A DNA stretch of 64,000 nt from Candidatus Latescibacterota bacterium (lineage in GTDB: Bacteria > Krumholzibacteriota > Krumholzibacteriia > WVZY01 > JAKEHA01): NCBI GenBank assembly GCA_963707635.1, contig OY970173.1:2464001-2528000 (forward strand), read 5' to 3'. Under the pieces are notes generated by a model. The model was not told the origin of the DNA and made no database searches. It worked only from the letters and a program-made list of their open reading frames with translations. The position numbers were made by a program, and so were the translations under genes. Positions 23,539-60,352 of this stretch are shown here, one piece after another (position 1 is the stretch's first letter; each line of letters opens with the position of its first letter).

Positions 23539-24982
23539 CTAGAACGCCAGCGACGCGAAGAAACGAAGCGACGCGTCGGAACGCCCGGAGCACGATCCCT
23601 GCGCGCCGAGCCCCGCGTGGGCCCCCAGCGCGACCCGCACCGACGCGATCACCCCGGTGCCGCTGGCGGAGGTGGCGGTGAACGCGCTCGAGCCCACGAG
23701 GCCCGCGTTCGAAACGTACGCCACCTGTCCGCCGCGCAGCGCGAGGGCGCTTGCCCGCACCCGCGCGTCGAACGCACCCGCGCGCAACCGTCCCGCCCAC
23801 GTCACCACCAGCCCGGCGGCGGCGCCCGCGTCCCGGATCACCTCCAGACGGTACTGGTTCTCGACCGCGAGCGTCGGCGACAACGCATCGCGCGTGGACA
23901 GCGATACCCGCGCCCGCAGCTCGTCGTCGCGCGTGATGGAAGCGGGAACCACGAACGGCCCGGGCGGCGCGGACGTCTCCTCGTCGCGCGTGAAGCGTAC
24001 CCCGAGCTCGAGTCCGACCCGTGTGCTCACCCGCCACGCGCCGGACCACTCGACGCGCCGCCGGTGCGCTTCCGCGCCGGATCGCCGGCGCGTGCTCACC
24101 AGGAAGACCGTCCGGCTGGTTGCGGCGGCCCACGCGTCGCGACGTTCGATGGCACCGCCCCAGCGCGCGCTGGGGGTGAGAATTTCGTCCGGCGGAGTCG
24201 CGCCGGCGGCCACCGCTGCCCGCCACTGGTGCCGTTCGCCGACCACGGCGCGCGCCAGCGCCCGGGCCGTGCCGTGCGCCAGTCCGGCCTCCGCCGACAC
24301 CCATCCGCTGTCGGCATGGTGGCCTGCGAATGCGGACACCGCCGTTTCGCGTCGCCGGTCCGCCGCGCGCCACGCGCCGGCGCCGACGCCGGCCGTCGTG
24401 CCTCGCGCGCTCCACTCGAGGCTGGTCCACAGCGCGCGCGTGGAGGGGTCGTCGCGAACGCTCCATCCGCCGACCGATATGACGAACGGCTCCATCGCCA
24501 TCGCCACGCCGGCTCCGACGCTCGTGCCCCATACCAGGGTCGAGGGCACGAGGCGCAAGCCCGCGACGGCCGGCGACGGGCGCGCGTGAAGCTGGGCGTC
24601 ATCACGACGGTCGGCAAGCAGCGCTCCTTCGCCCACCGTCGGGCGTACGACCCCGGCCACGGCGTGGCGGAGCGTTCCGGACCCCGTCCATTCCACGGCC
24701 CCCGACACGGCCGATTCGGTGGTGCGCACCCGCGCCGACGCCCCGCGATACACCGGCGCGCGCGGACGCCACGCGTGTCTCCCCCATCATTGCGTTTGCA
24801 ATGAACGAGGCGCGGCTGTCGTCATCGACCTGTTCGTCCAGGACCAGACCCGGGTGCTCGTCGCCCCACTCGGCGCGCGTCGTGTCGGACGCGTCCGCGA
24901 CGCTCCTCGAAATCGGGCGCGGACCGCCGCACGCAGGCACGACGGTGAGCGCCGCGATCCACGCCGCCGCGCGCAGCTTCAT
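23539..24982 (-). CDS. Putative outer-membrane beta-barrel protein (apparent frameshift near 24750)
   Basis: Lipoprotein-like signal MKLRAAAWIAALTVVPAC, amphipathic strands and terminal Phe (LRFFASLAF). Confidence 0.6.
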
Positions 24983-25752
24983 CGCGTCCACGTCACCGAG
25001 ACGCCATGGGAGAGACCCATCACCGCGTGGTGGGCCACCCCGGTCGCGACCTCCACACGATCCATCACGATGCGCGCCGCGACGCGCGAGGTATCGGTGC
25101 CGTCGTCGTAGCCTGCGATCAGCCCCAGCCGCGCGTCGGGACGCGCAACCACCGCCACGCCGGCGGCCACCACCCGTGACCCGTCGAAGCGCAGCGACCC
25201 CACGACGGTGGCCATCGCGCCCGCGCGTCCCAGAACCGCGACGGATACCGACGTCGACCGCACGAACGCGCCCGACATCGCTTCGACGTCGGCGACCAGG
25301 GAGACCGGGCCGAGGTCGGCGCGCGAGAACGCGCCGCCTAGCAGCGAGCGCTCGGAGAGGACGCCGCGCAGATCGACTTGCTCGACACCGGCCCGCATCC
25401 CACCCTGCCACACGCCGGCGTGGGCGTGCCCGGCTTCGACCACCACGCGCGTGTGGCCGCCGACCGGCGAATCGATCTGGGCCAGCTCGATCCGGAGCAT
25501 TGCTGGACCGAGCATTGCTGCGGATTGCACGCCGACGACGCGCAGACCGGCGATGCCGAACAGCTCCGCGTCGGCGACCTCGACGCTCCAGCGCCGGGGC
25601 TCGTTCCCTTCGACTGCACCCGGGTAGAGGGCCGTGCGCACCCCCACCGCGCGGTCGACGACACTCGGAAACGTCACCTGCGCGACGGCGGATCCCGCCA
25701 GAAACGCCGAGGCCACTGCGGCGAGCACTCCCCTACTGTCTCCGCGCCGCAC
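24979..25752 (-). CDS. PorV-like small beta-barrel protein (start uncertain)
   Basis: Signal peptide, ELFGIAGL and C-terminal AHHAVMGLSHGVSVTW, similar in style to the barrel at 58356. Confidence 0.55.
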   Translation of the reverse strand: MRRGDSRGVLAAVASAFLAGSAVAQVTFPSVVDRAVGVRTALYPGAVEGNEPRRWSVEVADAELFGIAGLRVVGVQSAAMLGPAMLRIELAQIDSPVGGHTRVVVEAGHAHAGVWQGGMRAGVEQVDLRGVLSERSLLGGAFSRADLGPVSLVADVEAMSGAFVRSTSVSVAVLGRAGAMATVVGSLRFDGSRVVAAGVAVVARPDARLGLIAGYDDGTDTSRVAARIVMDRVEVATGVAHHAVMGLSHGVSVTWTR

Positions 25753-27430: not shown

Positions 27431-27606
27431 CCCACCACCTCCACCACCCGAACACCACGCGCATGCTATGAGAACGACGCGCGCGAATCAATTTGCACGT
27501 GGTTCACACCCGGGGTGAACCTTGTGAACGGTGACAAGTCGTTCGCCTGACGACGGAAGGGCGATATATCGCCCGCAAAGGACAGCGACAGGACCCGCGT
27601 GGTTGA

Positions 27607-29793: not shown

Positions 29794-29900
29794 TCGGGTC
29801 GCGCGCCGGCCGGCCGCTACCGGCCCGGAGCCACGACAGTATATACACCCGGGAGCGCCCGGCTATGCCGAAAGCGCAAGAGGAAGGGGAATTGTGCCCG

Positions 29901-30278
29901 TCACGCGGACGTGTCCGCCACTTTGAACGCTCCGATCGCGTCCTGCGTGGTCGGATAGGCTTCCAGAATCGAGTGGAACTCGAGCAGCTGGAAGACCTCG
30001 TGGACGTCGCCGGTCATTCCCGAGAGCTTGAGATCCCCGCCGTGGTTGCGGATGCGCTTGATCTCCCCGATGAAGATGCCCCAGCCCGCGGAGCTGATGT
30101 AGTTCACGCCGGAGAGGTCGACGACAATCTTGAAGAGACTCCGGTCGAGCAGCCCGTAGAGGGCGTTCTCCAGCTCGCCGGCGGTCGTGGTGTCGAGGTA
30201 TCCGCTTACCTTGAGGATCGATACCCCGGCGCTGTTGTTGCCCGAGATGACGCTCACAACGATTCCGTCTACAGACAT
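29901..30278 (-). CDS. STAS anti-anti-sigma factor (RsbV/SpoIIAA-like)
   Basis: SGYLDTTTA, VVDLSGVNYISSAGWG, GGDLKL, VFQLLEF. Confidence 0.92.
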   Translation of the reverse strand: MSVDGIVVSVISGNNSAGVSILKVSGYLDTTTAGELENALYGLLDRSLFKIVVDLSGVNYISSAGWGIFIGEIKRIRNHGGDLKLSGMTGDVHEVFQLLEFHSILEAYPTTQDAIGAFKVADTSA

Positions 30279-30324
30279 CGCACCCTTCCTCATCCGGTTG
30301 TATACCCCGCCGGGGCCGCCGCGG

Positions 30325-32232: not shown

Positions 32233-32962
32233 GGGACAACACTTCCTCCGTCAACTGGTAGTAGTCGAACGCCCCGCGCGACATGGGCGAATACTCGAAA
32301 ATGGTCTGGTTAAAGCTCGGTGCCTCGCGCAGCGACGTATTCACCCGGATCACGGTCTTGAAGACGAGATCCTTGAACCGGTCGCGGAGCGTGTCCAGCA
32401 CGTCGATCGACAGTCGGGTGCGCCCGTCGTAGAACGTGGGCAGGATGCCGAGGATCGAGGTCTGGCGCGTCGAATTGTCGTTGATCTCGTCGATGATCTG
32501 CATGGTCTGGCGCGCGCCCGCCTGCGCCAGGTAGTCCATGCTCACCGGGATGATCACCTGGTCGGCGTACACGATCGCGTTGATATTGATGAGATTCACC
32601 GTCGGCGAGCAGTCGCAGATCACGACGTCGCATCCGCGCAGGTTGCGAAGCGCCATGTCGAGACGCCGCTCGCGGCTGGTGCGCGACGCCAGCACCATCT
32701 CGATCTCGGCCAGGTCGCGCCCGCCGGAATCGATGACGAACAGGTTCTGCCGGGCCTCGATCACGTCGACCTCGCCGTACTGGAGCAGGTCGCACAGCGT
32801 GCGCTGCCCCTTCAGGTCGAACGCGATGGCCACGTTGCGCTGTGGGTCGCAGTCGACCACCAGCACCTTCATGCCGCACAGGGCCAGCCCATGGGCGAGG
32901 TTGATGGCGGTGGTCGTCTTCCCGGTTCCGCCCTTGGACGTGATGATGGCGATCTTCCTCAT
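32225..32962 (-). CDS. ParA/Soj-family ATPase (orphan)
   Basis: Deviant Walker A KGGTGKTTT, DCDPQ, ICDCSP, IRVNTSLREAPS. Confidence 0.93.
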   Translation of the reverse strand: MRKIAIITSKGGTGKTTTAINLAHGLALCGMKVLVVDCDPQRNVAIAFDLKGQRTLCDLLQYGEVDVIEARQNLFVIDSGGRDLAEIEMVLASRTSRERRLDMALRNLRGCDVVICDCSPTVNLININAIVYADQVIIPVSMDYLAQAGARQTMQIIDEINDNSTRQTSILGILPTFYDGRTRLSIDVLDTLRDRFKDLVFKTVIRVNTSLREAPSFNQTIFEYSPMSRGAFDYYQLTEEVLSRA

Positions 32963-35900
32963 GCCGCGTCGTCGTCCTCGTCGCCGTCGTCGGCTTGCTC
33001 CTGCTCTGAACCGCCGCGATCGCGCAGCTGCTTGCCGTACTTCTCCCACCCGAGCGCGCGGAGCTTGTGGTCGCGGTCCACGTTTCGGTCTGTCACGGCC
33101 GAGTCGATGTCGAGATCGCCGGGCGTCGCCTCGTCGCCGCCGGCGTCGGCGAACTTGCCGCGGCCGAAGACCGGGGGCTCGTGGGGGGCCTCCGGCGGCG
33201 GACTCCCGTCGCGTGGCGTGCGGATGCTCGGGGCGCTATCCGCCGGTTTCCGGGTCGGCCGGACGGCCGGCGCGTCGGCTGGCCGGCCCGGCAGGGTCGC
33301 CGCACCCGGTCGCTCGCCCAGCACGTCGTCCAGCCCGTCCGCGTGCGTCTCGGGAGCTGCCGGGGCCACCGGCCTGGGCGGCCTGGGCGGCGGGCTGGCG
33401 GCAGGTTCCCCGGGACGCTGCTCGCGCACCGCCGCCACCGCCTCCGCGCGGGTGGCGAAGGCCGAAATGAAGGTCCGAAATTCGAGGCACGCGAACACGT
33501 CGGCCAGGTCGGTCCCCATGCCCGCCAGCGCCACCGCGCCGGTGGCCTCGAACGCGCGCGCGAACTGCCCCCACCCGCTGCTCGAGATGTACTCGACGCG
33601 CGTCAGGTCGAACACGATCGCGCGCGGAGCGCGCGCGAGCTCGCGCGAAAGCTCGTCGGACAAGAGCGACACCGCGGTGGTCTCCACCACGCCCGCGAGC
33701 GTGGCCACGCGCACTCCCTCGTCGCCGTCGCTCCATTCGAGGTCCATCCCCGGCGTGCTCGCGAACGAACGCCCGCGGGCCGTCTCCTCGGCGGCGGCCG
33801 CCGCCGGGGGCTCGTCCGCGATGGGCGCCGCCACGCGCCGGAAATCGTCGATCGCGTCGGCGAACATGTCGAAGGACGCGAGCACGATGTTGAACCCGAG
33901 CATGGTGAACACGTAGTACACGTCGGGGTCCATGCCGAAGAGTTTGATGTCCCCGCCCGCGCGGCGCACCTCGCGCAGGCGCTCGGTGAACACGCCCCAG
34001 CCGCCGCTCGACACGTACTCCACGAACGTCATGTCGACGACGACCCGGTTGCGCCCGCCCGCGAGCACCTGGTCCAGCGCGGCCCGGAGCCGCTCGGCGC
34101 TCACCGTGTCGATGATGCCCTTGAGCTGGAGCACCGCGATCTCTCCGCGTTCGCCGACGGTGGTGGCTTCGATGCGCAGGCTCTGCCATTCCATCGACGC
34201 CCCCGCCGGGGTCCCGCCCGTGTCGATGCCGTGCGACGACGCCATCGTATCGGCGCCCAGGTCGCGCCGGACCGGAGGCGCGCTGACGCGCCGTTGCTCG
34301 GGCGGGAGTGCCAGGTACGCGCGCGCTTCCGCGAGGCCGGGAAACGCACGCAGCACGTCGGCGAACCCGAGCAGCTCGTACACGTCGAACACCTCGGTGG
34401 TCATCCCGCACAGCACGATGTCGCCGCCGTGGTCGCGGAGCCCGCGCACTTCGCCGACGAACAGCCCCCACCCGCCGCTCGACACGTAGGATGTCTCGCC
34501 GAGGTCGACGACGATGCGCAGTGCGCCGGCCACGATCAGGTCATGCAGCTTGCGCTCGAGCGCGGACGAAGACGACGAATCCAGGTGCCCGGCCAGCCGC
34601 ATCTCTGTGATGCCGTCGGACGACGAAACCGCGATGCCCACGCCCTCGACCCGCTCGGTGATCTCGGCCGGGAGCGGCGCGCCGTCCGGCGCGGACGCGG
34701 GGATCGCCGGGGGCGCGACCCCCGGGATCTCGCGCAGGAGGTCGTCGACCAGGTCGCGGCGCGGCGCGGGTATCGGCTCCGCGCCCGGCACCTCGGGCGC
34801 CTCACGCCGCAGGCGGTTGCGGCGCAGGTAGTCGAGGCGGAGGTCTTTGGTATTCAAATTGAGCCGCTTGAGCTCCTCGTACACCATGCGCTCGGAAATG
34901 TGCTGCGACGGGTCACGGTCGCGGTTGTACTCCTCGGTGATGCGCTTGGCACCGAAATCGGGGTTGGCGGCGATGGTGCGGATGATCGCCTTGCGCGCCT
35001 CCAGGCTCACGCGCTTCAAGCTGACGTCGTCGCGCAGGATGTCGTTGCGCAGGCCCCGCTCGCCCATGGTTTCCAGCCGCTTCTTGTACCGGTAGAAGGT
35101 CGCCGGGGAGACCCGCATCTGCTGGCAGGCATCCTTCACACTCATGCCCTGCAACTCGACCATGTCGATCAGCTTCTTGCGAATGTCGAAGAGCACGTCG
35201 TCCGCCGTCATCTTCTCCTTCACCGCCACGACGGTGATGTCGTCGCTCTGCGGGTAATCCAGCGTGAAGCGCTTGATGTCCAGATCCAGCTTGGCGATGA
35301 ATTCCTCGGGCGAGAGGTAGCCGTGGGTCTTCACCATGTCCAGCAGGCGCTCTTCGCCGTACTGCTCGCGGCGCTCGTTCATGGCCTCGGTCACGCCGTC
35401 GGTGTAGATGACGAGCATGTCGTCCTTCTTGAGGCGGACCTTCTCGACGCTGATCGAGCGGCGGAACAGCGATTCGTCCGGCAGGCTGATGCCCACCGGG
35501 AAGCCGCGCGGGTTCAGGAAGAACGTCTCCCGGGTCTCGTGGCGGTAGAGAATCATCGGGTTGTGGCCCGCGCTCGCGTAGCTGATCACGCGGTTCTTGG
35601 AATCCAGAATGACGTAGAACATCGTGACGAACATGCCCTTCTTCATGTCGTCGGTCACGAAGGCGTTCATCTTCGACATCACGTCGCTGGCGTTGCGGTT
35701 GCCGCGGGCCTCCATGCGCAGCGCGGTCCGGATCATGGTCATGACCAGCGAACCCGGCACGCCCTTGCCGGACACGTCGGCGACCACCACCCCGATGGTG
35801 TCGTCGTCGACCTGCACGAAGTCGTAGTAGTCCCCGCCCACCTCGGCCGCGGCCTGGTAGAGCGGCGCGATGTCGTAGCCGCTGATCTGCGGGCGGCGCC

Positions 35901-37215: not shown

Positions 37216-37217
37216 GG

Positions 37218-45100: not shown

Positions 45101-48100
45101 CGGCGTGATACCCGACACGGCGATCAAGCCCTGCGACTGCACGAGCACGCTTCCCAGCCCCGAAGACGAGACGGACAGCGCGCGCGCACTGTTGCTCTCC
45201 ACACCCGCGGTGGCCACGTCGACCATGGTCGGCCCGGTCACGCTGCCCGACTGCGTCACGTCGAACACCATCGTGTCCACTTCGCCTCCGGAGAGCACCG
45301 TCCCGCCGCCCACGAGCGCGGGCCGCACAGTGGATACCCAGCCGGCCGCCGGCGAGAACACGAGCCGCGACGTGGGTCCGGCGAGCGTGAGCACGACGTC
45401 GCTCCCGCCGGTGTTACGCACCGCGGCGCGCACCTGGAACGTCTTGCTCATCCCCTGCGTCACCTTCGGCTGCGACGGAATCACGGCGTTGAACGTGACC
45501 GCCGCCGGAGACTGGACCAGCAGGTTGCCCTTGCCGCCGAGGTTGGTGTCGGCGAACAGCGGCTGGCTGGTGTTGACGTCCTCGACCTCGAGCGCGCCCT
45601 CGATGGTCATGTTCCCGACCGTGGTCGCGTTGCCGGTGTTGTCCGAGACGTTGAACACCACCGTGTCGACGTCGCTGCCGGTGAGCAGCGTCCCTCCGGA
45701 AAAGGCCGCCGGGGTGGAGACCACGAATTGATTGGTACGGTCGACGCCGGCGTGGATGAAGCGCAGCGTCGCGGCCGTGAAGGTGACGTTCGCCCCGCCG
45801 TTGTTGGCCACCACCATGCGCACCTTGATGGGCTTGCCCTGGTCCTGGGTGAACAGCGGCTGCGACGGGATCATGGAGAGGATGGCGATGTTCGGCGCGT
45901 CCTGGACCAGCACGTTGTCCGCGACTGTGATCAGCTGGCCGAAGGGGAGGCCGTTTTCGAAGCCATTCAACTGGACCTGCGGGACATATGACGCGCTCGC
46001 GATGGATCCGCTGACGGACGTGCCCAGGAATTGCAGCGTGGTGGTACCGGGCGGCAGCGACGTCGGACCCGACGGGTTGAGCGCCGCGGTGAAGGCGCCG
46101 GCGGCGAACCGGATCGTGGTCGTCGCCGGGGAGAGGTTCACGGTGGCAAGGCCGGTGTTCACGAGCTGGACGGTGAACGCGACCGTCGCGGTCTTGCTCA
46201 CCTGGTCCGGGTCCAGCGCGTCGCCGGCCGCCGACGCCACACTCGCCGGCGTCACGACCGACACCGGGCTGCCGGTGAGCAATACGGGCGGCCAGGTGGA
46301 TGGCGCGCCGTTCTCGGTGCCGTGGGCGTCGAGCGTCACCGGATACGAACCGGGCGTGAACGTCCCCGGCACCGCCCGCGGCCGGAACGTCATGGTCTGC
46401 ATCGCGTTCCCGCCGGCGATCGCGTAGTTCTGCGTGGGCGACGCGCTGAACGTGCGCACGCCATCGGTGAAGGTAAGGCGCGTCGTCGTGGAATCCAGGA
46501 ACGCGAGCCCGCCGCCGGTGTTCCGTATCGTCGCCTGGAATGCGTAGATCTTGCCGCGAGAGGCGACCACCGGCGTCAACGTGGACGGCTCATAGGCCAG
46601 GATGGCCGCGGCCACGACTTCAACGGTCGCGCGCGGGTAAGGCGCCACCGCCAGGTCGACCACGGACTGTCCCCCCACGGTGCCGGTCGCAGCAGCATCG
46701 ATGCTGTAGAAACCCAGCGTCGCTCCGGTCTGTACGGTCACCGGGACGTTGAACACGCCGGATGCGCCCGGGCCGAGCGCGAGCCCCAGCTCGGGAGCAT
46801 TGCCGACGATGAACAGACCGGCGGGAATGAAGGTCAAGTCGATGTCGTTGATGGTCGTGCTCTGGGCCCCGTCGTTCTTGACCGTGACGGCGATGCTCGT
46901 CCCATAGCCCCGGCTCACCTGCCCCGACGCCGGCACGATGCCAGTGATTTCGATGTTGGTGACGAGCAGCGAGAGCGCGGGGAGGCTGCAGGCCACGTTG
47001 ACGGGCGCGGTATTCGCGTCCGCGCCGATGAGCGTCGCCGTCGGCGCGTACTGGGCGGTCAGGAAGGCCGGGTCGATGGCGGCCGACGCGAAGGCGAGGA
47101 TCGCGTTGCCGCTGCCCGGCACCAGCTGCTGCGCGGCCAGATTGGCCGAGTAGCTGTGGGTCCCGTCCGTGAACGAAAACGTGGTCGCGGTCGTCAGGTT
47201 GACCGACGTCGGCGACGAGTTATTGACCACCACGCTGAACGCGACCGAACTCCCCGGCACCACGATGGCCGGTGTGGGCGGGGTGTTGCACACCAGCACG
47301 GGCGGCGGCGCGAACGTGATATCGATGGTCCCGCTCGCCGTCCCGGTGGCGCTGGTCATCGTCACCGTCGACACGCCCACCGTGGTGGACGAACGCAGGT
47401 CGAACGTGATGGTGCCATTCGCCGCGATCGTCTTCGGGCTTCCACCCACGATGAAGCCGCCGAGGTTGGCCGACACGTTCACCGACAGCCCCGCCGTTAC
47501 CTGGTTGGCAAACGCGTCTCGAATGACGCCGCTGGTGATGGTCGTGGTCGAGGTGCCGTTGGCCGTGATCGTGGTGCGGGTCGCGGTCGCCGTGATTGCC
47601 CCGGCGGGTGCGGCGGGAACGACCGTCACCGCTTCACCCAGCCCCGTCACCGAGGGGTTGCCGACGGTGGCGGCGCGCACCTGGTAGGTCTGCACCTGGG
47701 TCGCGGTGACGGTCGTGACCGCGACGCCGTTGGACAGAGTCAGCGGGTTGGTGCCGAACACCAGACCGACGCCGGGATCCCCGGAGAGTGCGACCTGCGT
47801 CGCGTCGTCGTCGACGGGGTTGTTGTTGATGTCGTATGCCGTGATGGTGGCGTTCTTCGAAACCCCCGCCGTCGTCGACGACGCATTCATGACGACGGTG
47901 TAGTAGGCGATTCCGCCCGCGACCGTGGTGACGTTGAAGGTCACGCGCTCGCGTGCGGCCGGGGTGCCGTCCAGAATCGTCGCGGCCACCGTGCTAGGCC
48001 CCGCGGTGGTGGACGTGTGCAGACGCGCGACCGCGCGGCCGTTGGCCGCCGACGCGGCGATACCATCCGTCGAGTCGCCCACCGAATCGCGCAGGAACCC

Positions 48101-51100
48101 GCTCGGCGCCGGCGACGACTGGACGAGATACCTCACCGCCTGGCCCGCGACCGGGTTGCCCCACTGGTCGCGCACTTCCGTGCGCAGCGGTTGAGTCACC
48201 CCCACCGGTATCGACGGTGGGCTCGATCCGGCCACGTAGACCACGCGATACGCGGGGCCGTTGGTGACGGTCACTGTCGGGCTGATCCCGGTGGGACCGC
48301 CGCCCTGCGTCTGCGCCCCGACGGTGAACGTCTCCGCGACGGTGTCGCGCACGGTGGTCACGAACTGACCGGCGGCGAGCGTGCCCGAGACCGCGCCCAG
48401 GGTGGCATTCCCGGTGTGCAACACGTCGATAACGGTCGAGTTGTCCTGTGTCCGGTAGTTGTTGTTGGCGTCGCGCGCCTTGATGGTCACCGAGGTCACC
48501 TGGTTGGCGACGAGCGCCGTCGACCCGGTCGTTATCTCGTAGCTCGCGATCGGACCCGCGACCGTACTCACCGTGAAGTTCACCGTCTCCAGGGCCGGCG
48601 GCGCCCCGTCGAGAATGGTCGCGCGCACCAGGTTGGTCCCCGATCACGGTCCCGGTGGTCAGCGTCGTCGACACGTCTCCGGCCGCGTTGGTCGTCCCCG
48701 ACGGCGGTGCCGGCGACCCGCCGCCCTGGGTGACCGCGAACGACACCAGCTGGCCGACGACCGGATTGCCGAACGGATCGAGCACGCGCGCCGTCAAGAG
48801 CCGCGTCGCCCCCGCCACGATCCCGCTCCCATCGCCCGCCACGTTGGTCACGCGGTAGGCGGCGGCGGGTTTGATCTTTACAATGTTGGAGTAGCCTTCG
48901 AAGCTGCCGGCGTCCCGCGCCCGCACGCGCATCAGCTCGGCCACGGTGTACGATTCGTTGACCACCACCGCGCCCGCCACCAGCGTCGCCTGCGTGACCG
49001 ACAGCGGATTCCCGGTGGGGGTCGTCGTGACGTCGTCGACCGCGGTGAGCGTCACCGAGTTGCCCGCCGACGTCACCTTGTTGTTGAAGGCGTCGCGCGC
49101 CTCGATCGAGACGTTGAACGCCGCGCCCGCGATCGCGCTGTCGGCGGCGATCACCGCATAGCTCGCCACCACGCCGGTGTGGGTGACGGTCACGACTCGC
49201 TAGGTCGCCGGTGAGCCCCGCGGCTGCCGCCGCGATATCCCAGCCCCCAGCCGTCGGTCCGCGGCCGTAGACCGTCCGCGAGCCGCCGATCAGGTTGAAC
49301 GTGGTCGTGCCGACGCCGAAGTCGGTGAGGCTGAAGACCAGCGAGCTGCCCGCCTCCGGCGTCAGCGTCACCAGGCTGGTGTTGCCCGTGTCGAGGTTGT
49401 CGCTGCCGTCCAGCGCCTCCACCTTGAACGAAAACGGACTGCCCCGCCGGCGCCGTGCTGGCCGACAGGAACGTGATCTTCAGGTGGGTCGCGCCGCTCG
49501 AGACGGTGTTCACCGCGAACGTCACGCGTTCGCGCGCGAGCGGCGAGCCGTCGAGAATCTGCGCGTTCACCTGGTTCGTCCCCGCGGTCAGCGCGGTGTG
49601 GTAGGTCACGAGCCCGCGCCCGGAGCCGTTGGTGACGACGATGCCGTCGTTGGGATCGCCGTCGGTGTCGGTGAACGACGGTGTGCCGTCCGGCGCCGAC
49701 GCCACGGAGAAGGTGGCGAGCGCGCCGGGGACCGGGTTGCCGTAGAGGTCGCGGACCTCCACCTCCAGCGGGCGCGTCGTCCCCGCGGTGACCCCGCTTC
49801 CGTCGCCGCTGATCTTCACCACGCGGTAGGTGCCCGCGTTGGAAACCGAGACGACCGCGCTGGTGCCGCTCGGCGGTCCCCCGCCCGACTTCTCGGCGGT
49901 GATGGTGAACGTCTGCACGACCGTGTCCCGCACGGTGGTGGCGAACACGCCGTTGGTCAGCACCCCGGTCGCGGCCCCGAACTGCGCGCTGCCGGTCGAC
50001 GAGAGCGTGACCGACGTCGTATTGTCCAGCGTGACGACGTTGTTGCCCGCGTCGTAGGCGGTGATCGTGAGCGGCACCGTCTCGCCCGCGAGCAGCGAGG
50101 TCTGCTGCGGCACCACCGTGAAGTAGGCGATGCCGCCGGCCACGGTCTGTCACGCTGAACTCGACCAGCTCGTCGCTGGGAGGAACGCCGTCGAGGATGG
50201 TCGCGCGCACGCGGTTGTCGCCGGCGACGAGACCGGTGGTGAGCGTGGTGGCGGCGGTCCCGCTCCCGTTGCGTGGCGATCGACGCCGGCAGCACCGACC
50301 CGCCACCCTGGAACGCGACGAATGACACCTGCTCCCCCGCGACCGGGTTGTCGTAGGCGTCGAGCACCTGCGCGGTGAGCACGCGGGTCGCGCCGGCCGC
50401 GACGCCGATGGCGTCGCCGGACACCTTGGCGATGCGCTTGGCGGCCGCGGCGGAAACCGTGACGATGCCGCTCGTCCCTTCCTTGCTCCCCGCGTCGCTG
50501 ACCTTGACGCGGATCGCTTCGGCCTTGGTGTACGACTCACCGACCGTCGCCTGACCGCCAGCCAGGGTCGCACCGGTAACGAGCAGCGTCGACTGGGCGG
50601 GCCCGGGATTGATGTCGTCGATCGCGGCCAGCGTGATCCCGTTCGACGCTCCCACCACCCGGTTGTTGTACTCGTCGCGCGCTTCGATCGAGACGTTGAA
50701 GGTCGCCCCGGCCACGACACTCGCGACGGTAGACACGGCGTAGTCGTCGACGAGGCCGGTGTCGGTGACGATCAAGGGTTCGGTATCCGCGCCCAGTCCG
50801 CCGCCGCTGGTGGTGACATCCCAGTTCCCCGCCAGCGTGCCGAGCGTGTAGACCGTGCGCGCGCCGGAGGCGAGTGTGACCTGGGTGACGGTCGCGCCGA
50901 AATCGGTGAGGCTGAATTGCAGCCCGCTGCCCGCTTCCGGGGTCAGCGTGACGATGGCCGCGTTGCCGGTGTCGACGTTGCCGGTGCCGTCGACGGCCTC
51001 GACCAGAAACTGTACGCTCTGCCCCGCGGGCCGGGTCGAGGGTCCGACGAAGGTGATGCGCAGATTGGTGGCGCCGCTCGCGGTGGTGGTGTAGGTCACG

Positions 51101-53668
51101 TCGCCGACCGACACTTGCGCCACGTTGGCAGTGAACGCGTCGAGCACGTCCGCCAGACGCCGCGCCGGGCGGCGCCTGATAGCGCACCGTGATGCGGCCG
51201 TGGCGTCGGAGTTCCCGCAGCGCGCGGTGGGTTGAGGTGGTGGTCGGGTTGCGGGTCGACCGGGTCTCGGATACCAGCGACCCGTCGGCCGCGTTCTTGA
51301 TGAAAATGTCGACGCGCTCGCCGCTCTTGACGTTGCCGAACGCGTCGGTGAGCGTCGCCGTCACCACTTCGAACGAACTCACCGTGACGCTCTTGCTGCC
51401 CGGCGTGATCACGAGGTTGGCGCCCGGGCCTGCCGTGCCCGTGGCCGTGAAGTCGACGCTGGGCGTGCTTCCGCTCGCGATCAGCGCGCGCAGGCGGTTG
51501 AGCCCCACGATCGTGCCCAGGCGCCAGACATCGCAGTCGATGGTTCCGTCGGCGATGGTGACGCCGGTGCTGTCGACGCCGCCTCCGGCGACCACATCCA
51601 CGGTGCCTCCGCCACCGACGGCGCGAAACGTGACGGTGGCGCCGGAGACGAGGTTATCGAAGGCGTCGCGCACGCGCACCTTCGGCAACACCGCGACCGG
51701 CGTGTTGACCGCCGCCGACTGTCCTGCGCCGGCGACGAGTTCCACCTTGTCCGCGCCGCCGCTGGACACGGTGATGACTTGCGACTGGCCGCTGGCGGCG
51801 CCCTGCACCGCGTTCAACTGAAACAACTCGGCGCGCGTATCGGTGACGCGAAGCGGCGCGACACCGTTGTCACCGGGAGCGAACGTATACGTCGCGTCGT
51901 CGCCTGAGAGATTGACGAGTGTTCCCTGCGCGAGCGGTGCCGCCCACTCGACCACACCATTGCCCACGCCGCCGCTCGTCGTCGAGAGATTCACGGTGCC
52001 GGTGTAGCTGGTGACGACGTGGCCCTGTGCGTCGAGCGCGGTGAGCGTGACCGGCTTGATGGTCCCCGCGATTGCGTTCCCGTCGGGCATCGACCACTGG
52101 AAGCTCGCGATCCCGCCCGCGGTGAAGTTCACCACCGCGGAGTCGGTTACCGCGGTGGCGCCGATCACCGCCTTGACGGTGCGCGTGCCGACGATGGTGG
52201 TCGCCAGGGTTCCTGTCGCCTGACCGCTCCCGTTGGTGACCCCGCCCGGCTGGGTCAGCGTGGCGCCGGCGGCCGGGATGGCGGAGAGCGTCACCGACTG
52301 GCCGGAGACCGGGTTGTTGTTCGCGTCCCGGGCCGTGACCGTGATGGTGCTGGTGGAGGTGCCGTTCGCCGTCACCGGGGTGGTTGCCGCGACCAGGCTC
52401 GCGCCCCCGCTCACCGGTCCCGGCTGGAACGTGACCTGCGCCGTCGGCGTGAGCGCCTGTCCGTTGATGGTCGCCGAGACCGTCACCAGCTGCGCCGTCG
52501 TGTTCGTCACCGACCCGATCGCGCGCCCGTCGGCGCCGGTGGCGCTGCCCGGGTCGGCCTTGTTGGCGTTGCCGGTCACCGCCAGCACGACCGTGTCGCC
52601 CGCCCGCGGGTTGGCAAACGCGTCTCTCGAGGTCACGGTGACGGTGCTCTGGCTGGTGCCGTTGGCGATGACCGGGCCGGTCGCGGAAATGGTCGACACC
52701 GTCGTGCTCAACGGGCCGGGTAGCACGGAGACGGTGGCCACACCGCCGAGCACCGGCGATCCGGAGGTGGTGAGCATGGTGAGCGAATGAGGTGTCCCGG
52801 TCGTCGCGAGTGTCGCCCGGTAGTCGACGCGCACCGAACTCTGCCCGGTGGAGATCACGATGCTCGTAATCGGCGTCGAGTGATTCCCGGGCGAGTAGTA
52901 CGAGCCGTGGGTCGAAAACAAGCCGATGGTGCGATTCGCCGGCACCGCGGTGCGGTTGCCGAAGGCGTCGCGCACGACGATCCGGTACGCGGCGAAGTCG
53001 CCCGCGGTCATGGTGGTGTCGCCGGGAGCCGGATCCAGCGACGACGGGGCGCCCGCGACGACCGTCAGCTGCGGTGAGGTCGCGATGGAGACCGGGGACG
53101 CGCCCGCCGGGTCGGACGCCACCAGAAAGACGTGCACGCCGGTCGCCGTCGCGGCACTCGCCCGCGCGACGGCGCCGCCGGCGTCGTCGCCGTAAATGAG
53201 CGTGAGTGTGTTGCCGGCCGTCAACGTATCGACGTCAATCGTGACGACCTGGCCCCCCACCGTGAGCAGCGGGTTGCCCGTGGGCTCGTTGGTGCCAATG
53301 CTAACGAACGCCTCGGAGGTGGAAGACGAGGTCTGGGGCGCGCTCCATCCGGAGGGAATCGTCACGCGCACGGTGCCGTCGGTGATCGTCTCGGCCGCCG
53401 TGTAGACGATGGTCCACTTTCCGGCCGCACCTGCGGGAACCGATGCCGGCGGCGATATCGTCGCCGTCCCGCTGCCGGGGCCGGCCAGCGCAGGAACAGC
53501 GGCCGCGACCCACGCCATCGAGAGCCCCGCCGCGAGTCCCCGAGAGCACGCGCGGGTGGCGCTGCGACGGGGTCCCCGCCGCGCGGAGCCGGCGGGGTGG
53601 CGCGGCGACAGGACCCGCGCTAGCGGCGACAGGCCCCGCGAAGCTGCTGCGAAAACAGGCATGCTCAT
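39098..53668 (-). CDS. Giant (~4,800 aa) Ig-repeat surface protein with C-terminal FlgD-Ig/T9SS-like domain; split by at least 6 apparent indels
   Basis: Continuous T/V/G/S-rich beta protein across ORFs 50537..53773, 49957..51147, 49368..50720, 49190..50143, 48580..49422, 47994..49193 and 39098..48628. Invasin Big_1-like DxxxNP motifs; CTD HNYPNPF...IYALTGDLV...WDGRNGQGEVVRNGVY. Confidence 0.85.
47930..51100 (-). repeat. Approximately 1.58-kb (about 525 aa) diverged tandem duplication within the giant gene
   Basis: TNLRITF...PAGQS...VEAVDG (near 51060) recurs as THLKITF...PAGQS...VEALDG (near 49490). RATILDG occurs near 50200 and 48620; ILDG..ARERVTF near 49550 and 47970. Confidence 0.75.
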
Positions 53669-53756: not shown

Positions 53757-54022
53757 CACCAGCGGTTCCCCATTTCGGGGCATGACTACCCCGGGCTGGA
53801 GTCGGACTCAATCGGCGGGAACTCCAGCACCGACGCGAGCCGGGATTCCCGGGATGGTAGCAGCCGGAGGCGGAATAGGCAATCCCCGCAAGGGATTAGC
53901 CGGGACGACGGGGAACTGGCGGGAAGGGTGCCAGGGGGCGACCCGACACGGGTCGCTTGACCCAGGCGGCCGGGGCCAGGCCAACGGTTCGTGGCGGGGT
54001 GGACGGGCGGTTTGCCCCGTCG

Positions 54023-54403
54023 TCAGGGGGCAATGGCGAGCACTTTCACGATCGAGTTCCGGCTGTTGAACCCGTCGGGTTCCGACAGCGGGTTGGCGGG
54101 ATCCGGGACCCAGTTCTTCCCGTCCACCACGAACTTGTACGCGTACGTTCCCGGCGACAGCGGGTAGTAGAGCGTCCACTCGCCGTCGGAGTTGTCATCC
54201 GCCATCGGATCGGCCGTCGGCGACCAGTCGTTGAAGTCGCCGACGACACAGACCTTCTTCGCGTCGGGATTGCGATAACGAAACAGCACTCCGCCTTCGA
54301 CCAGTTGCGGGCCGGCCGCCGGGGTCGGCGGCGGCGGTCCCCCGCACCCCGTACACAGGACAGCAACGAGGACCGCGGTCCCAACCCGGCGACGTGTCAT
54401 CAT
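54023..54403 (-). CDS. Lipoprotein with CBM48/AMPK-beta-like glycogen-binding domain
   Basis: Lipobox-like LCTGC; VVGDFNDW, PGTYAYKFVVDGKNWVPDPANP...DGFNSRNS. Confidence 0.88.
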   Translation of the reverse strand: MMTRRRVGTAVLVAVLCTGCGGPPPPTPAAGPQLVEGGVLFRYRNPDAKKVCVVGDFNDWSPTADPMADDNSDGEWTLYYPLSPGTYAYKFVVDGKNWVPDPANPLSEPDGFNSRNSIVKVLAIAP

Positions 54404-54831
54404 CGAACCTCCAGTTCTCCGCCGCGACCCACCAGCAGAATCTCCGACGCCCGGCCCGCCGGGCCCGCGTCCACCTCGGCGGGATTGCCGGGGTCGAGAC
54501 GCCACACCGCCTCGTCGAGCCAGAAGAGGTACTGGTACCTTCCCGGAGAGAGCGTGACGACGATGTCCCACACGCCGTCTCCGTCGTCGTCGCTCATCAG
54601 ACCGATGTCGGCCTCGCCCGCGGGACCGTCCCCCTTCGCCCAGTTGTTGCCGGGCCAGCTGCCCGCGAGCTGCACGCGGTGCGCGGTCGGCGCGAAGAAG
54701 CGGAAGCGGACTCCGTCGTGGGTCACCGCCGGCATCGGCGCGCGCGAGCGCGGGGCCAGCGACGCGCACGACACCGCGCCCGCGACGGCGAGAGCCACGA
54801 TCGCAATCCGTGCGCATTTGAATCGCTCCAT
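54400..54831 (-). CDS. Lipoprotein with CBM48-like domain
   Basis: Lipobox-like AVSC; VRFRFFAP, DDDGDGVW, PGRYQYLFWLD...WRLDPGNP. Confidence 0.82.
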   Translation of the reverse strand: MERFKCARIAIVALAVAGAVSCASLAPRSRAPMPAVTHDGVRFRFFAPTAHRVQLAGSWPGNNWAKGDGPAGEADIGLMSDDDGDGVWDIVVTLSPGRYQYLFWLDEAVWRLDPGNPAEVDAGPAGRASEILLVGRGGELEVR

Positions 54832-54842
54832 CGCCTTCGCTT

Positions 54843-56900
54843 CTAATCCAACTGAATGACGCATTCAAGCTTGATCGTGCCGAGATCTTCCAGCGACGTC
54901 TCCAGCCCGCGCAAGCTCTCGAGGAGCGGCGCCGCGTCGCTGCGCCGCACGCCGCTCTCGATGGTCCCGCGCAGGTACCCGGTCCGGCCGATGTCGGCGT
55001 AGTCCCCGACCACCGGGTCGAACACCACCGGGTCGAATCCGAATCCCAGGTTGAGCGAGACCCCGTCCCACGCGTAGCCCGCTTCCAGATAACCGTCCCA
55101 GTAGGAGGCCGCCGCCTGTGCCGGCGTGTCATCGTACCACGCCATTCTCGCGTCGGCTCGCGCAACCCAGCGCTGGCGGAGCGTGGTCTGAACGAACGCC
55201 CGCGCGCTCGCGTGCCGGACTTCCCCCGCCCACCCGCGCATCTGCACGCGCAGCGTCACCCCGGCCTCGGTCCGCCCGGAGTCCTTCTCCGCGGCGAAGG
55301 TGACCACGTCGTGCGACTCGAGGCCGAGACCGACGATCGAGGGCTCGTCGACCTCGTCCCAGAGTTGAAGCCACGGGTTGCGTTCCGGCCAGTCCGCATA
55401 CAGCGCATCTGGCGTGTCGCCGTAGCTGGCGTCGGTGTAGGTGAGCGTGGCGCGCAACGACCACCCGTGCCACGGGAGCGTGCCTTCGGCCACCACTCGC
55501 TGCACGTCGGCCCGCGACGACCCCTCGATGCCGTCGAAGTCGAAGCGCGTCCCGTCCCAGCGCAGCCGCACGCTTCCCCCCGCCACCGGGGCGGCCAGCT
55601 CGAAGAGCGCGCGCTTCGTGTCCATGATCGGCATGCGCGCGACCGCCGGCACCGCGTCCGCGCCGGGAGCAATCGTCGGCGGCAGCGTGCCCGTCACGGA
55701 TTCCGACGCAAACGCGTGCGCGTCGCAGTCCCCCTGGCCGTACGCGCCCGTGATGCGCAGCCCGTACACGTCGCGGGCGCGCAGCCACGCATTCGTCACG
55801 CGGCGATCCTCGCGGGTCGCGTACTCCGTGGTGGTGAACCCGGACGCGCCGCGCAGCACCGAAGCAAACACGCCGGGGTTGACCCCCAGGTCCTCCCGGC
55901 GCGTGACGCCGAGGTCGAAGCCGCCCAACGACGCGGTCGCGTCCAGCGCGAGGACGTCGGAATCGTCGAACGTGTACGCGTAGGTGTAGACCGTCGTGTC
56001 GGCGGCGGCGCCGGCCGCGAAGGACGCGAGCGCGGACGCCGGGATGGTGACCGCGGGACGCGGCGTGCGGGTGGTCTCGTCGGCGTAGAAGACGCGCAGC
56101 GACGCGTGCGACGCCGACGCCACCGCCGCGACGCCGTGGCGGCGGAACCCGGCGTCGTAGCCGAACACGCCCGCGTCCCCCACCAGCGCCATCGGATCGC
56201 TCGACGCCCACGTGGAGTCGTTCTCGAGGCCGCGCACGTCGATGCGTCCGAAATCGAGGTCGACGCGGCCGCGGTCGAAATACGCGTCGAGCGAGGGCGG
56301 CGACCACGTCCACGACGAATCGTCGGTCGCGACCCGCGCGCGCGCATCGAGGCGGGCGTACGACCCGTTCACTTCCGCGTCGACCCGCTGGGTCCCGTCC
56401 GCGTCGCCGTCGTCGACGCGGAGTGCCCCGATGTAGCGCAACCAGCCGTGCACATGCCGCGCGGGAGCGCCGGTTTCGCGGCGCTCGGTGTCCAGAATCA
56501 GCCCGCCGCTTCGCTCGATGAGCTTGATCGGAGAGCCCTTCTCGGCCGACCCCGGGTTGTCCGGGTCCGCGATCCAGTTCCCGTCGACGACGAACTTGTA
56601 CCGGTATTCACCCGCGACCAGGAACAGGCGCACCTCGAACTCCTCCCCGTTCGCGCGCATGCGCTCGACGGTCGGGTTCCAGAGGTTGAAGTCGCCCACC
56701 AGGTACACCTCCTGCGCGCCGGGCGCGCGCAGGGTGAAAACGACCTCGTCCTGCTCGACGCGAACGGCGGCGTGCGCCGGGAACGCGACAGCGGCGACGA
56801 CGGCGGCGCACAGCACTGCTAACCACGTGTGGCGCGCGCGTCGGGTATCCCCGCGAGCGGGGGCCCCTCCCGACACGCGCCCGCAAGTTCGCCGAATCAC
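54843..56900 (-). CDS. Exported CBM48 domain fused to a putative large beta-barrel
   Basis: Signal peptide ending AHA; VYLVGDFNLWN...GEYRYKFVVDGNWIADPDNP; long amphipathic-strand region. Confidence 0.72.
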   Translation of the reverse strand: MIRRTCGRVSGGAPARGDTRRARHTWLAVLCAAVVAAVAFPAHAAVRVEQDEVVFTLRAPGAQEVYLVGDFNLWNPTVERMRANGEEFEVRLFLVAGEYRYKFVVDGNWIADPDNPGSAEKGSPIKLIERSGGLILDTERRETGAPARHVHGWLRYIGALRVDDGDADGTQRVDAEVNGSYARLDARARVATDDSSWTWSPPSLDAYFDRGRVDLDFGRIDVRGLENDSTWASSDPMALVGDAGVFGYDAGFRRHGVAAVASASHASLRVFYADETTRTPRPAVTIPASALASFAAGAAADTTVYTYAYTFDDSDVLALDATASLGGFDLGVTRREDLGVNPGVFASVLRGASGFTTTEYATREDRRVTNAWLRARDVYGLRITGAYGQGDCDAHAFASESVTGTLPPTIAPGADAVPAVARMPIMDTKRALFELAAPVAGGSVRLRWDGTRFDFDGIEGSSRADVQRVVAEGTLPWHGWSLRATLTYTDASYGDTPDALYADWPERNPWLQLWDEVDEPSIVGLGLESHDVVTFAAEKDSGRTEAGVTLRVQMRGWAGEVRHASARAFVQTTLRQRWVARADARMAWYDDTPAQAAASYWDGYLEAGYAWDGVSLNLGFGFDPVVFDPVVGDYADIGRTGYLRGTIESGVRRSDAAPLLESLRGLETSLEDLGTIKLECVIQLD

Positions 56901-58372: not shown

Positions 58373-59246
58373 AGGGGGTCACTTTCTGTGGCCGCGAGTA
58401 GCGCAACGTCACGGCATAGCTCGCTCCGAGCGTTTCGTGGCCGGTCATGCCCGCGTCGAAGGCGAACCCCTGCCACAGAATGCCAACGCCGATCGTCGCG
58501 CGGTTGGAATCCAGGCCGCCGCGCAGCGCCAGGTGGCGCTCGAGACGCAGCTCCGCGCCGCCCCGATTCCTCCACGCGCCGGTGGCGTCCTGACGCGTCT
58601 CGACCGTGACCACCAGGCGATCCTGCCAGTAGTACGCCAGGCCCACCGCCTGGGCGGATTCCAGCGCGGTCGATCCGCCGCCCGGGACGAGGTCGATGTC
58701 GGGCTGGTTGAGATTGCGAATCGAGTAACCGACTCCGATGAACGCGAATGGACGCAGCAGCACGCCGGCGCCGAAGGCGACCGCGGTGGCGGGGTCGGCC
58801 GCTTCGTCCCCGGCGGCGACACGCGCGAGGTCCACGGACGCGCCGACTGAGAGCGACGCGTCTTCGGACGTGCGCTTCACGTCGCAAGCCACCGCGACCG
58901 TCAGCAGGTCTTCGGAGTACGCGCCGGCGAGGCCGCGGTGAAACCACGACGCGCCCAGGTTCACGCCTGGCACCGGCACCGCCACGGCGAGGTAGCCGTC
59001 GTCGAGGCCGGTGACGCCGTACGGGCGCTGGTAGGTGGCGAGGAGAGAGAGCGTGGGCAGGCTGCACAGGCCGGCCGGGTTGTCGACGACCGCGGAGGCG
59101 TCGTCCGCGATGGCAACGAACGCCCCGCCGAGCGCTGCTGCCCGCGTGGACAGGAGCGGGCGTTCGAAGTGCGCCGACGCCGCCGGAGCCAGTCCCGCGG
59201 CGAACAGCGCGACCACCGCACCGATGCGACCACCCGCCGGTGTCAT
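58356..59246 (-). CDS. PorV-like beta-barrel protein
   Basis: RAAALGGAFVAIADDASAVVDNPAGL, RPYGVTGL, GAE...LRGG, HETLGASYAVTLRY. Confidence 0.78.
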   Translation of the reverse strand: MTPAGGRIGAVVALFAAGLAPAASAHFERPLLSTRAAALGGAFVAIADDASAVVDNPAGLCSLPTLSLLATYQRPYGVTGLDDGYLAVAVPVPGVNLGASWFHRGLAGAYSEDLLTVAVACDVKRTSEDASLSVGASVDLARVAAGDEAADPATAVAFGAGVLLRPFAFIGVGYSIRNLNQPDIDLVPGGGSTALESAQAVGLAYYWQDRLVVTVETRQDATGAWRNRGGAELRLERHLALRGGLDSNRATIGVGILWQGFAFDAGMTGHETLGASYAVTLRYSRPQKVTPYGSSR

Positions 59247-60352
59247 CGGACGACCGCGACTCCGATGCTCGCGCGCGCGCGGCTGCGCTCGGCGCCGCCG
59301 GTGAACTCCAGGTCGAACGTGGCCACGAATACGCCGCCGGGGACGATGCGCCCCTGCGCGTCGCGCCCGTCCCAGGTGATCGAGGCCTGCGGGGCGGGGC
59401 CGGCCAGTGCAACCGCAAACTCGCGGACTTCGCGGCCGTCCACCGAGAAGATCGTGCACGACCCCGAGACATCCTCGAACTCACCGGTGTGCGGGGCGAC
59501 GGTGAACGTCGCCGCCTCCGCGCGATCCGGCGCGAAGGCGCGCGTGTCCACGCGAACCCCGAGCGACTCTTTTCCCTGCGCGAGCGTCGCCTCCGTGCTG
59601 GTCTCGATGGCCGCCACCGCGCGCGGGGAGACGCCCGCGTCCGGACGACCGTCGGCGTCGGCGTCGGCGACGACCGCCAGCACGCGGTCGAGCCGCGCGC
59701 GCGCGAAGCGATCCGCTTCGGGCACGACGCGCGGATCCGGCGCCGCATCGCCGCTGCCGGTGCCCACGCCGCCGGTGATCGCACTCACCAGCCGCACCGG
59801 GCTCTCGAGGGAGAGGCGCGCCCACGGGATCGCCAACTCGAAACCGGCGCGGCCGTCGATGCTGGATTGCACCGCCGCCGGGAGCGTCGCCCGGTCCACC
59901 AGCGCGAACGGGTGGGACGCGTCGACCATCGCGACGCTGGGCGCCGCGTGGGGAGCGGCGAGCGCGATCAGGTTGGGTCGAATGCCGGGAAGGTCGATCG
60001 CCCGCCGAAACGAACCGGCGCCGTCGAGCTCGCTCAACCCGCCCGCCGTGGCGGCGAGGAACACGGCGGCGTATTCGCCGCGCGAACGAAAGTCGACGGC
60101 GAGATACAGGAACTCCGCGTCCCAGGTGAGTGCCACGCGGGCCAGATCGCGGTCGCTGCCCCAGCGTGAATCGGTGTCGCTCTCCGGAAACGTGCTGGTG
60201 GAGTCGAGCACCCACTCGTCCGCCGCGTACTCGTCGAGGACACCGTCGATGGAAATGCGGTCGCGAAGCGAGGTCGCGGTGGTGGGGTGGACCGCGGTGG
60301 GGGCGAGCGAGGCGAGGAGAGCGAGGCAGCCCGCGCGGCGCCGCAGCTTCAC
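59243..60352 (-). CDS. Secreted CBM9/DOMON-like protein with C-terminal FlgD-Ig/T9SS-like domain
   Basis: ISIDGVLDEY, TWDAEFLYLAV, FELAIPW; CTD FAPD...IFSVDGREV...WDGRDAQGRIVPGGVFV. Confidence 0.75.
   Translation of the reverse strand: MKLRRRAGCLALLASLAPTAVHPTTATSLRDRISIDGVLDEYAADEWVLDSTSTFPESDTDSRWGSDRDLARVALTWDAEFLYLAVDFRSRGEYAAVFLAATAGGLSELDGAGSFRRAIDLPGIRPNLIALAAPHAAPSVAMVDASHPFALVDRATLPAAVQSSIDGRAGFELAIPWARLSLESPVRLVSAITGGVGTGSGDAAPDPRVVPEADRFARARLDRVLAVVADADADGRPDAGVSPRAVAAIETSTEATLAQGKESLGVRVDTRAFAPDRAEAATFTVAPHTGEFEDVSGSCTIFSVDGREVREFAVALAGPAPQASITWDGRDAQGRIVPGGVFVATFDLEFTGGAERSRARASIGVAVVR

Follow-up and report, generated by a model that had tools for sequence, protein, structure and literature searches.

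Gene pairs at the locus

A stretch of 64,000 nucleotides (hereafter the window; positions 2464001-2528000 of contig OY970173.1, assembly GCA_963707635.1, Candidatus Latescibacterota bacterium) was analysed for three gene pairs, in each of which a gene for a putatively secreted protein with a divergent C-terminal domain (CTD) of the kind known from type IX secretion systems (T9SS), here called the cargo, is followed directly by a gene for a PorV-like outer-membrane barrel. The source genome (G000) is a single 3.2-Mb contig with ~70% G+C and 96% completeness, and its lineage sits outside Bacteroidota. All three pairs were located in one co-directional minus-strand cluster of ~37 kb (window ~23539-60834), and the coordinates of the features are given in Table 1.

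A sequence-only reading of the window had placed each barrel gene immediately behind its cargo gene with overlapping stop and start codons, and this was confirmed from the DNA. The junction of pair 1 is ATGA, where the stop of P0001 overlaps the ATG at 59246, and that of pair 2 is GTGA at 39098-39101. In pair 3 the genes overlap by 20 nt, with the GTG at 25752 sitting inside the cargo gene, whose stop codon TAG was found at 25733-25735. An alternative start of P0004, GTG at 25728, is preceded by AGGGGA; several P0004 orthologues start with M at the column of 25752 (family alignment A3).

Table 1. Positions of the three pairs, of other genes in their cluster and of further PorV-family barrels of the genome. 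Locations are window positions unless a locus is named; aa, amino acids.
Feature	Location	Strand	Description
Cargo 1, P0001	59243-60352	minus	369 aa; signal-peptide-like N-terminus, middle domain without family match, divergent CTD at ~residues 280-369
Barrel 1, P0002	58356-59246	minus	296 aa; PorV/PorQ-family 14-strand barrel
Cargo 2, giant	39098-53668	minus	~4850 codons; Big_1/invasin-type Ig-repeat surface protein, CTD at end
Intact 3' frame of giant	39098-48628	minus	3176 aa
Barrel 2, P0005	37218-39101	minus	627 aa; PorV/PorQ-family barrel (~residues 1-310), C-terminal coiled-coil/TPR region (~300 aa)
Cargo 3, P0003	25733-27430	minus	565 aa; signal-peptide-like N-terminus, lamin-tail domain(s), divergent CTD with two conserved cysteines
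CTD of P0003	25736-26065	minus	two cysteines, in the motifs VACE and VVVGC
Barrel 3, P0004	24979-25752	minus	257 aa; compact, very divergent PorV-like 14-strand barrel, family without annotation
DUF4388/PATAN protein	60349-60834	minus	MshE-type c-di-GMP-binding motif; same cluster
P0007	56897-58372	minus	directly after barrel 1; signal peptide, no family match
Three CBM48 proteins	54023-56900	minus	same cluster, near pair 1
HATPase_c_2-HAMP-SpoIIE-HTH-STAS regulator	32959-37317	minus	1452 aa; same cluster
ParA/MinD-like ATPase, TPR protein, two STAS proteins		minus	same cluster
P0008	23539-24753	minus	directly after barrel 3; no family match, typical outer-membrane-protein C-terminus (…SLAF)
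PorV-family barrel			behind PorU
PorQ-like barrel			behind FG-GAP propeller protein with type A CTD
Barrel d	L004:4597-5883	minus	behind Big_1 protein; bears its own CTD
Barrel h	L007:5028-6260	minus	behind Big_13 protein
Barrel b	L002:3427-7515	plus	behind abutting TonB-dependent-receptor-like gene (1033 aa)
Barrel g			behind sigma-54 regulator
Barrel f	L005:5129-6496	minus	no called gene upstream; C-terminal SPOR (peptidoglycan-binding) domain

Cargo tails

The last ~100 residues of the three cargoes were aligned with 17 invariant columns, W-D-G-R and 13 more, which fits the CTD motif previously quoted for all three proteins. Upstream of the tail, the giant matched Big_1 and Invasin_D3, and P0003 matched the lamin-tail family LTD with 75.3 bits. 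When FlgD_ig (PF13860) was scored on the three tails, 34.4 (giant), 24.4 and 15.4 bits were obtained, so that the tails are type-A-like but divergent; for the P0001 CTD the family gave only 13-15 bits, and for P0003 21.2 bits, under its cut-off. Membership of the type A class was assessed with TIGR04183 / PF18962 (curated cut-off 23 bits, match at the C-terminus). None of the three cargoes reached it, the giant being borderline with 22.1 bits (23.9 bits with neighbouring matches) and P0001 and P0003 having no TIGR04183 match at E<=0.01.

Across the genome, PF13860 gave 119 matches and TIGR04183 108, in each case with 100 above the cut-off, and an iterated profile of our own recovered 121 frames, 115 of them with the CTD at the C-terminus.

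Family and fold of the barrels

The barrels were compared with NF033709, the NCBIfam model of the PorV/PorQ family (curated cut-off 90 bits). P0005 scored 91.8 bits, above the cut-off, and its residues 497-609 matched TPR families; given the usual barrel topology, this C-terminal region would lie in the periplasm. P0002 scored 35.5 bits over its N-terminal part only and matched other PorV-family barrels of the genome with phmmer. Its AlphaFold2 (AF2) model, built from an alignment of 24 sequences, had a predicted local distance difference test score (pLDDT) of 84.4 and 16 strand segments in DSSP, and its top match in the Protein Data Bank (PDB) was the 14-strand PorV 8gl6_F (E 9.6e-10, template modelling score 0.73). 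A profile built from the nine PorV-family barrels of the genome, P0002 and P0005 included, matched Flavobacterium johnsoniae PorV (6h3i_F) over its full length with E 1.2e-30, and FadL and TodX only marginally (E 0.01-0.09).

P0004 had no match in Pfam or NCBIfam, NF033709 included, none by phmmer among the other frames of the genome and, as a profile, no meaningful one among PDB sequences. Its family was assembled from 20 orthologues of the genus and order, with identities of 20-44%. The AF2 model has 14 strands (pLDDT 87.5, predicted template modelling score 0.81); Foldseek listed OmpG, PorV and FadL together for it, and VIA-align placed PorV 8gl6_F at the top (Z 25.1, root-mean-square deviation 2.3, 233 residues aligned from residue 20), with FadL and TodX tied with it at Z 24-24.7 and OmpG lower at Z 18-20. 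When the P0004 family was aligned by hhalign with the nine PorV-family barrels, a probability of 75% and an E of 2.5e-5 were obtained over 240 collinear columns. Across 19,494 frames of the genome the only other match of the P0004 profile was P0002 (E 0.003), and 10 relatives came back from a profile search of 5.8 billion proteins; they have no Pfam domain and no name other than 'hypothetical protein'. By predicted models and profiles for P0002 and P0004, and by sequence for P0005, all three barrels have the PorV/FadL fold, as had been claimed, and P0004 is a divergent, unannotated branch of it.

Predicted complex of P0004 and the P0003 tail

The complex prediction was made for pair 3 only, with residues 27-257 of P0004, the last 101 residues of P0003 and a 21-row alignment for each. 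In three runs the ipSAE was 0.90, 0.90 and 0.87, and the best of three controls reached 0.00; the partner had a pLDDT of 89 and the runs shared at least 95% of contacts. In the calibration of the tool the corresponding mark was reached by 116 of 157 solved complexes and 2 of 215 mismatched pairs, which is only a rough guide here as our own alignments were supplied.

All contacts on P0004 fall in loops of one rim (residues 64-72, 93-100, 126-134, 162-166, 195-196, 218-221 and 242-246). Contact loops L1, L2, L6 and L7 are the best-conserved parts of P0004, which evolves fast (mean column conservation 0.61-0.81), and the turns on the opposite rim are the lowest (0.31-0.43). Given the usual topology with both termini periplasmic, the contact rim would be extracellular, and P0004 is thus predicted to bind the P0003 CTD on its surface loops. 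Among the 21 orthologues one of the two CTD cysteines is invariant and the other nearly so; both lie inside the predicted interface, and they may form a disulfide. A correlation between P0004 and P0003-CTD distances (Spearman 0.60 over 21 genomes) was not used, as it is confounded by shared ancestry.

Pairing in the genome and its relatives

At E<=1e-8, NF033709 matched nine frames of the genome, seven of them above the cut-off. A CTD gene was found directly upstream on the same strand for six of the nine and for four of the seven; the six paired barrels are P0002 and P0005 of the window, PorV behind PorU, the PorQ-like barrel, and barrels d and h (Table 1). With a CTD carried by ~4.5% of genes (assuming ~2700 genes), the binomial P is 6e-7 for 6/9 and ~1e-4 for 4/7. 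The P0004 pair is a seventh, outside the nine NF033709 matches. Two of the six, PorU-PorV and the PorQ-like barrel with its propeller protein, resemble known pairs with a retained CTD.

Thirteen genomes of the class were sampled, with 6-9 PorV-family matches each, and in their 30 best PorV-family loci a CTD frame was directly upstream in 24. Without the two loci of G000 the count is 23 of 28, in 12 relatives. The genome-wide adjacency count, which had been set beforehand as a check, came out far above chance in G000.

The individual pairs were likewise traced in relatives. For pair 1, 29 loci were examined, four of which run into a contig end at the barrel, and a CTD-bearing P0001 orthologue was directly upstream of the barrel orthologue in all 25 informative ones. 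The same arrangement of P0003 and P0004 orthologues was seen in 21/21 loci, and a long CTD-ending frame was directly ahead of the barrel-TPR orthologue of pair 2 in 7/8, four genomes from other families being included. In eight related genomes the P0002-like and P0004-like genes of pairs 1 and 3 share a contig, and in six of these they are 29-33 kb apart, as here. In G027 and G031, which belong to one genus, they are separated by ~0.9-1 Mb with each pair still intact; since the pairs persist even where the cluster is split, the pair is the unit of conservation.

The tails of the seven paired cargoes were compared with those of the genome as a whole. Against TIGR04183 the propeller protein scored 38.3 bits, the giant 22.1 and the barrel-d cargo 18.0, the last two below the cut-off, and PorU, the barrel-h cargo, P0001 and P0003 had no match at E<=0.01. 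Atypical tails are enriched among paired cargo (Fisher P ~0.003, from approximate counts), and paired cargoes rank 75, 77, 79, 85, 105 and 114 among the 119 PF13860 matches. A supported group of four in a 117-tail tree includes the giant and the barrel-d cargo, and P0001, P0003 and the barrel-h cargo sit on long branches.

The barrels might instead be additional general parts of the T9SS or its attachment complex, i.e. PorV/PorQ paralogues serving all CTD proteins, with adjacency reflecting operon co-expression only. They do belong to the general carrier's family, and ~115 CTD proteins lack a dedicated barrel, so that a general route must exist. We consider this account improbable, as the pairs are kept across the order and class despite the strong divergence of the barrels, with P0004 orthologues at 20-45% identity, and stay intact where the cluster is split; moreover, paired cargo has atypical CTDs, and conservation in P0004 is highest in the loops that, by prediction, contact the cargo CTD.

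Another explanation makes the barrels channels of the FadL type that take up small hydrophobic or other substrates, with the upstream protein acting as a surface feeder in a nutrient-acquisition unit. FadL and TodX nearly equal PorV as structural matches of P0004 (Z 24-24.7 vs 25.1), one PorV-family barrel lies behind a TonB-dependent-receptor-like gene, and pair 1 adjoins CBM48 proteins. At the sequence level, however, the nine-barrel profile points to PorV (E 1.2e-30) and hardly to FadL or TodX. In addition, the T9SS tail is the sole feature common to the upstream proteins and is what the predicted contact uses, and the canonical-type pairs of this genome (PorU-PorV and the PorQ-like barrel with its CTD propeller protein) share the same layout. 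An uptake role is therefore held to be quite unlikely.

Further barrels that had escaped recognition were looked for behind CTD genes, the downstream gene being tightly linked for 18 of 121 CTD frames in a crude gene list. None of the candidates looked at, namely a PAP2 phosphatase, a small OMP_b-brl protein, an enzyme of polysaccharide synthesis and an aldehyde dehydrogenase, was PorV-like. At one locus of a relative (L106, G054:C5:70688-74560) a 1568-aa open frame includes a PorV-family match of 195 bits and has no separate CTD frame upstream; cargo and barrel may be fused there, or a stop may have been missed. An O-antigen-ligase-like (Wzy_C) gene comes after barrel h and its CTD cargo.

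Type IX secretion components of the genome

The T9SS core (SprA and PorU-PorV) is encoded in the genome. SprA was found with 492.1 bits summed (cut-off 200) and PorU with 529.7 bits (cut-off 420), the latter directly upstream of the best PorV-family barrel, which scored 224.5 bits with NF033709 and 153 bits with the PorV equivalog NF033710, under its cut-off of 250. The best match of the PorP/SprF family TIGR03519 in the genome was 15.8 bits (in barrel b; cut-off 90.55), and the type B CTD model TIGR04131 had zero matches in the genome at E<=1. In the absence of PorP/SprF and type B CTDs, the PorV/PorQ-family barrels are thus the only candidate private carriers.

The PorZ model matched CTD regions only and was discarded (best 72.3 bits vs a cut-off of 260). 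Its best match was the tail region of a 1759-aa frame in L098 (G000:C1:2358001-2366500), which sits directly ahead of a Polysacc_synt_2 gene and whose tail clusters with the giant's and with that of the barrel-d cargo.

Proposed role of the pairs

The explanation that we favour, with a probability of roughly 0.7, is that each pair comprises a secreted protein with a divergent T9SS CTD and a 14-strand PorV/FadL-fold barrel that would be its private carrier and anchor, via loop binding. The proposal of dedicated PorV-family barrels in a T9SS-like pathway, made in the sequence-only reading, is supported by the fold, the adjacency, the T9SS core, the conservation of the pairs, the atypical CTDs and one complex prediction. 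A tail-barrel 'code', in which a tail would prefer its cognate barrel over a non-cognate one, is a further inference.

By analogy with the Bacteroidota system, the cargo would cross the inner membrane by Sec, and its CTD would then be offered at the SprA translocon. The extracellular loops of the cognate barrel, rather than the general PorV, would take the CTD there, and the cargo-barrel complex would leave the translocon. The CTD would be retained on the barrel, so that PorU would not cut it and the cargo would stay held at the surface, in the way that PorQ holds PorZ, PorV holds PorU and SprF holds SprB. The ~115 other CTD proteins, with typical type A tails, would use the general PorV beside PorU.

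A number of observations weigh against this explanation. Every functional step in it is inferred or predicted. P0002 and P0004 lie below the curated PorV-family cut-off. Barrels b, f and g do not follow a CTD gene, so that the PorV family is not always paired, and at one of the eight loci of pair 2, in G016, the barrel-TPR gene was found without the giant's CTD upstream. The score of the P0004-CTD complex could partly echo remembered geometry, because a PorV-CTD complex has already been solved (8gl6); this worry is tempered by the lack of any PDB chain that P0004 detectably matches in sequence.

The region 39098-53668, proposed as the cargo gene of pair 2, is not a single open frame in this assembly, which is another point on that side. 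By tracking G+C content at third codon positions (GC3) and by three-frame translation, at least six changes of coding frame were traced between ~51250 and 48650. At three closely read junctions one extra base accounts for each shift, in one case inside a G run, and near 51200 the frame looks more complicated than a simple one-base shift. Orthologues are single frames of 4902, 4864, 4540 and 5918 aa, with a range of 4864-5918 aa in many-contig relatives, and the giant's frames come out short in G000, G012, G013 and G027, four assemblies of few contigs. Because the orthologues in many-contig assemblies are unbroken, one gene of ~4850 codons is a reasonable reading, and the breaks are probably long-read consensus errors in a repetitive gene and not signs of a pseudogene. 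Public sequencing runs were searched for the region of the giant, and with word shares of only 0.05-0.07 no run containing it was found.

The motor is a further point on the same side. GldL, GldM and GldN were not found in the genome with TIGRFAM models at E<=0.1-1, models which derive from Bacteroidota, may let divergent forms escape and, in the case of GldN, were unmatched in control genomes too. GldK-like FGE-sulfatase proteins reached 96.9 bits, under the cut-off of 350, and a GldK-like gene at genome position 970639 was rejected as a motor locus, its neighbours being housekeeping enzymes and not PorLMN. Of SprA and PorKLMN, which had been named beforehand as the components to look for, SprA was therefore recovered, GldL, GldM and GldN were not, and the GldK-like proteins stayed below the cut-off. 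With SprA, PorU, PorV and >100 type A tails in the genome, its T9SS either lacks a motor or has a very divergent one, which bears on how carrier-cargo complexes would be pulled from SprA here.

The unmatched GldL, GldM and GldN are in keeping with a route independent of SprA, in which each barrel would export its neighbour itself in a two-partner-like manner, and the tight translational coupling of the genes points the same way. A 14-strand barrel is, however, too narrow for the passage of a folded protein or of one of ~4850 residues, and the N-terminal segment aligns with the hatch region of FadL/PorV; SprA, PorU and PorV are, moreover, present and complete. Such self-export is regarded as very improbable.

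Under dedicated carriage the T9SS tail might have split into a general type A form and private forms read by the loops of their own barrels. This would amount to a true sorting code which decides, among ~120 proteins, between PorU cleavage (with release or lipid-linking) and retention, in a T9SS without a recognisable PorLM motor where another energy source frees the carriers. We put this forward tentatively, as a possibility on the doubtful side.

Comparison with known systems

A 2023 review proposes cognate PorV-like barrels for particular CTD substrates, shielding the CTD from cleavage, and gives as its cases PorZ/PorQ and the PorP/SprF partners of type B cargo (PMC10202324). Adjacent type B cargo is bound and anchored by PorP-like barrels, with sprF adjoining sprB, and PorE binds peptidoglycan and forms a complex with PorP in the periplasm (PMC9143113). 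Substrate CTDs bind the extracellular loops of the cognate carrier inside the translocon, and motor energy is needed for release (PMC10994853). In Porphyromonas gingivalis, PorZ on PorQ and PorU on PorV are each CTD proteins held via an uncleaved, atypical CTD (PMC10947112, PMC10202324). What the sequence-only reading gave as established, namely the type B/PorP-SprF and the general PorV roles, agrees with these papers (PMC9143113, PMC10994853, PMC10202324).

The PorQ-PorZ and PorV-PorU pairs have direct counterparts here, with PorU before the best PorV and a CTD propeller protein before the PorQ-like barrel. The partners in the window differ in that they are not machine parts but a giant Ig-repeat adhesin, a lamin-tail protein and a small protein whose domain is unknown. 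This one genome has at least seven such pairs, the lineage is Krumholzibacteriia, and the P0004 family lies beyond the reach of the PorV models.

SprB-SprF of F. johnsoniae and PG1035-PorP-PorE of P. gingivalis share with the present pairs the order of a cargo followed by its own FadL-fold barrel, and a giant repetitive adhesin followed by a barrel. The wall link made by PorE in P. gingivalis has a parallel here in barrels that carry a fused periplasmic domain, TPR in P0005 and SPOR in barrel f. Unlike in SprB-SprF, the barrels here come from the PorV/PorQ family, and the CTDs are divergently related to the type A/FlgD_ig kind.

F. johnsoniae PorV (6H3I; 8GL6 chain F) is the best structural match of both P0002 and P0004, and loop binding of a CTD is predicted for P0004. 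It serves many substrates, whereas P0004 is ~110 residues shorter, is always encoded with one cargo and lacks the conserved N-terminal motif of the PorV-family alignment (A4). FadL and TodX resemble P0004 in the 14-strand barrel with an N-terminal segment inside (Z 24-24.7) and differ in profile (E 0.013-0.09 vs 1.2e-30 for PorV) and in context, where CTD cargo stands in place of catabolic genes.

The idea of cognate carriers is recent in T9SS research and, to our knowledge, has been worked out in only two Bacteroidota. The principle is already published. New is the combination of the lineage, private partners of the PorV/PorQ and not the PorP family for divergent type-A-like tails, a P0004 family unseen by models, TPR- and SPOR-fused barrels and the apparent lack of GldLMN; a literature search for Krumholzibacteria together with 'type IX secretion' found no paper. 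The pairs would extend the cognate-carrier principle from Bacteroidota to another phylum, where its genetic form is cleaner. The ~7 private barrels each beside one cargo, together with ~115 cargoes without one, would form a natural matched and unmatched set for studying carrier specificity, and a genome in which SprA, PorU, PorV and >100 tails occur without detectable GldLMN is relevant to the power source for release from the translocon. As current PorV models miss the P0004 family, counts of T9SS carriers in uncultured phyla are too low.

Neighbouring genes

P0007 and P0008, which follow barrels 1 and 3, show no mutual similarity; in the ESM Atlas their nearest clusters are without name, and DUF6029 is a weak lead only. 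Together with the regulatory, c-di-GMP-binding-motif and CBM48 genes listed in Table 1, the 37-kb cluster may be one regulated surface-adhesion locus.

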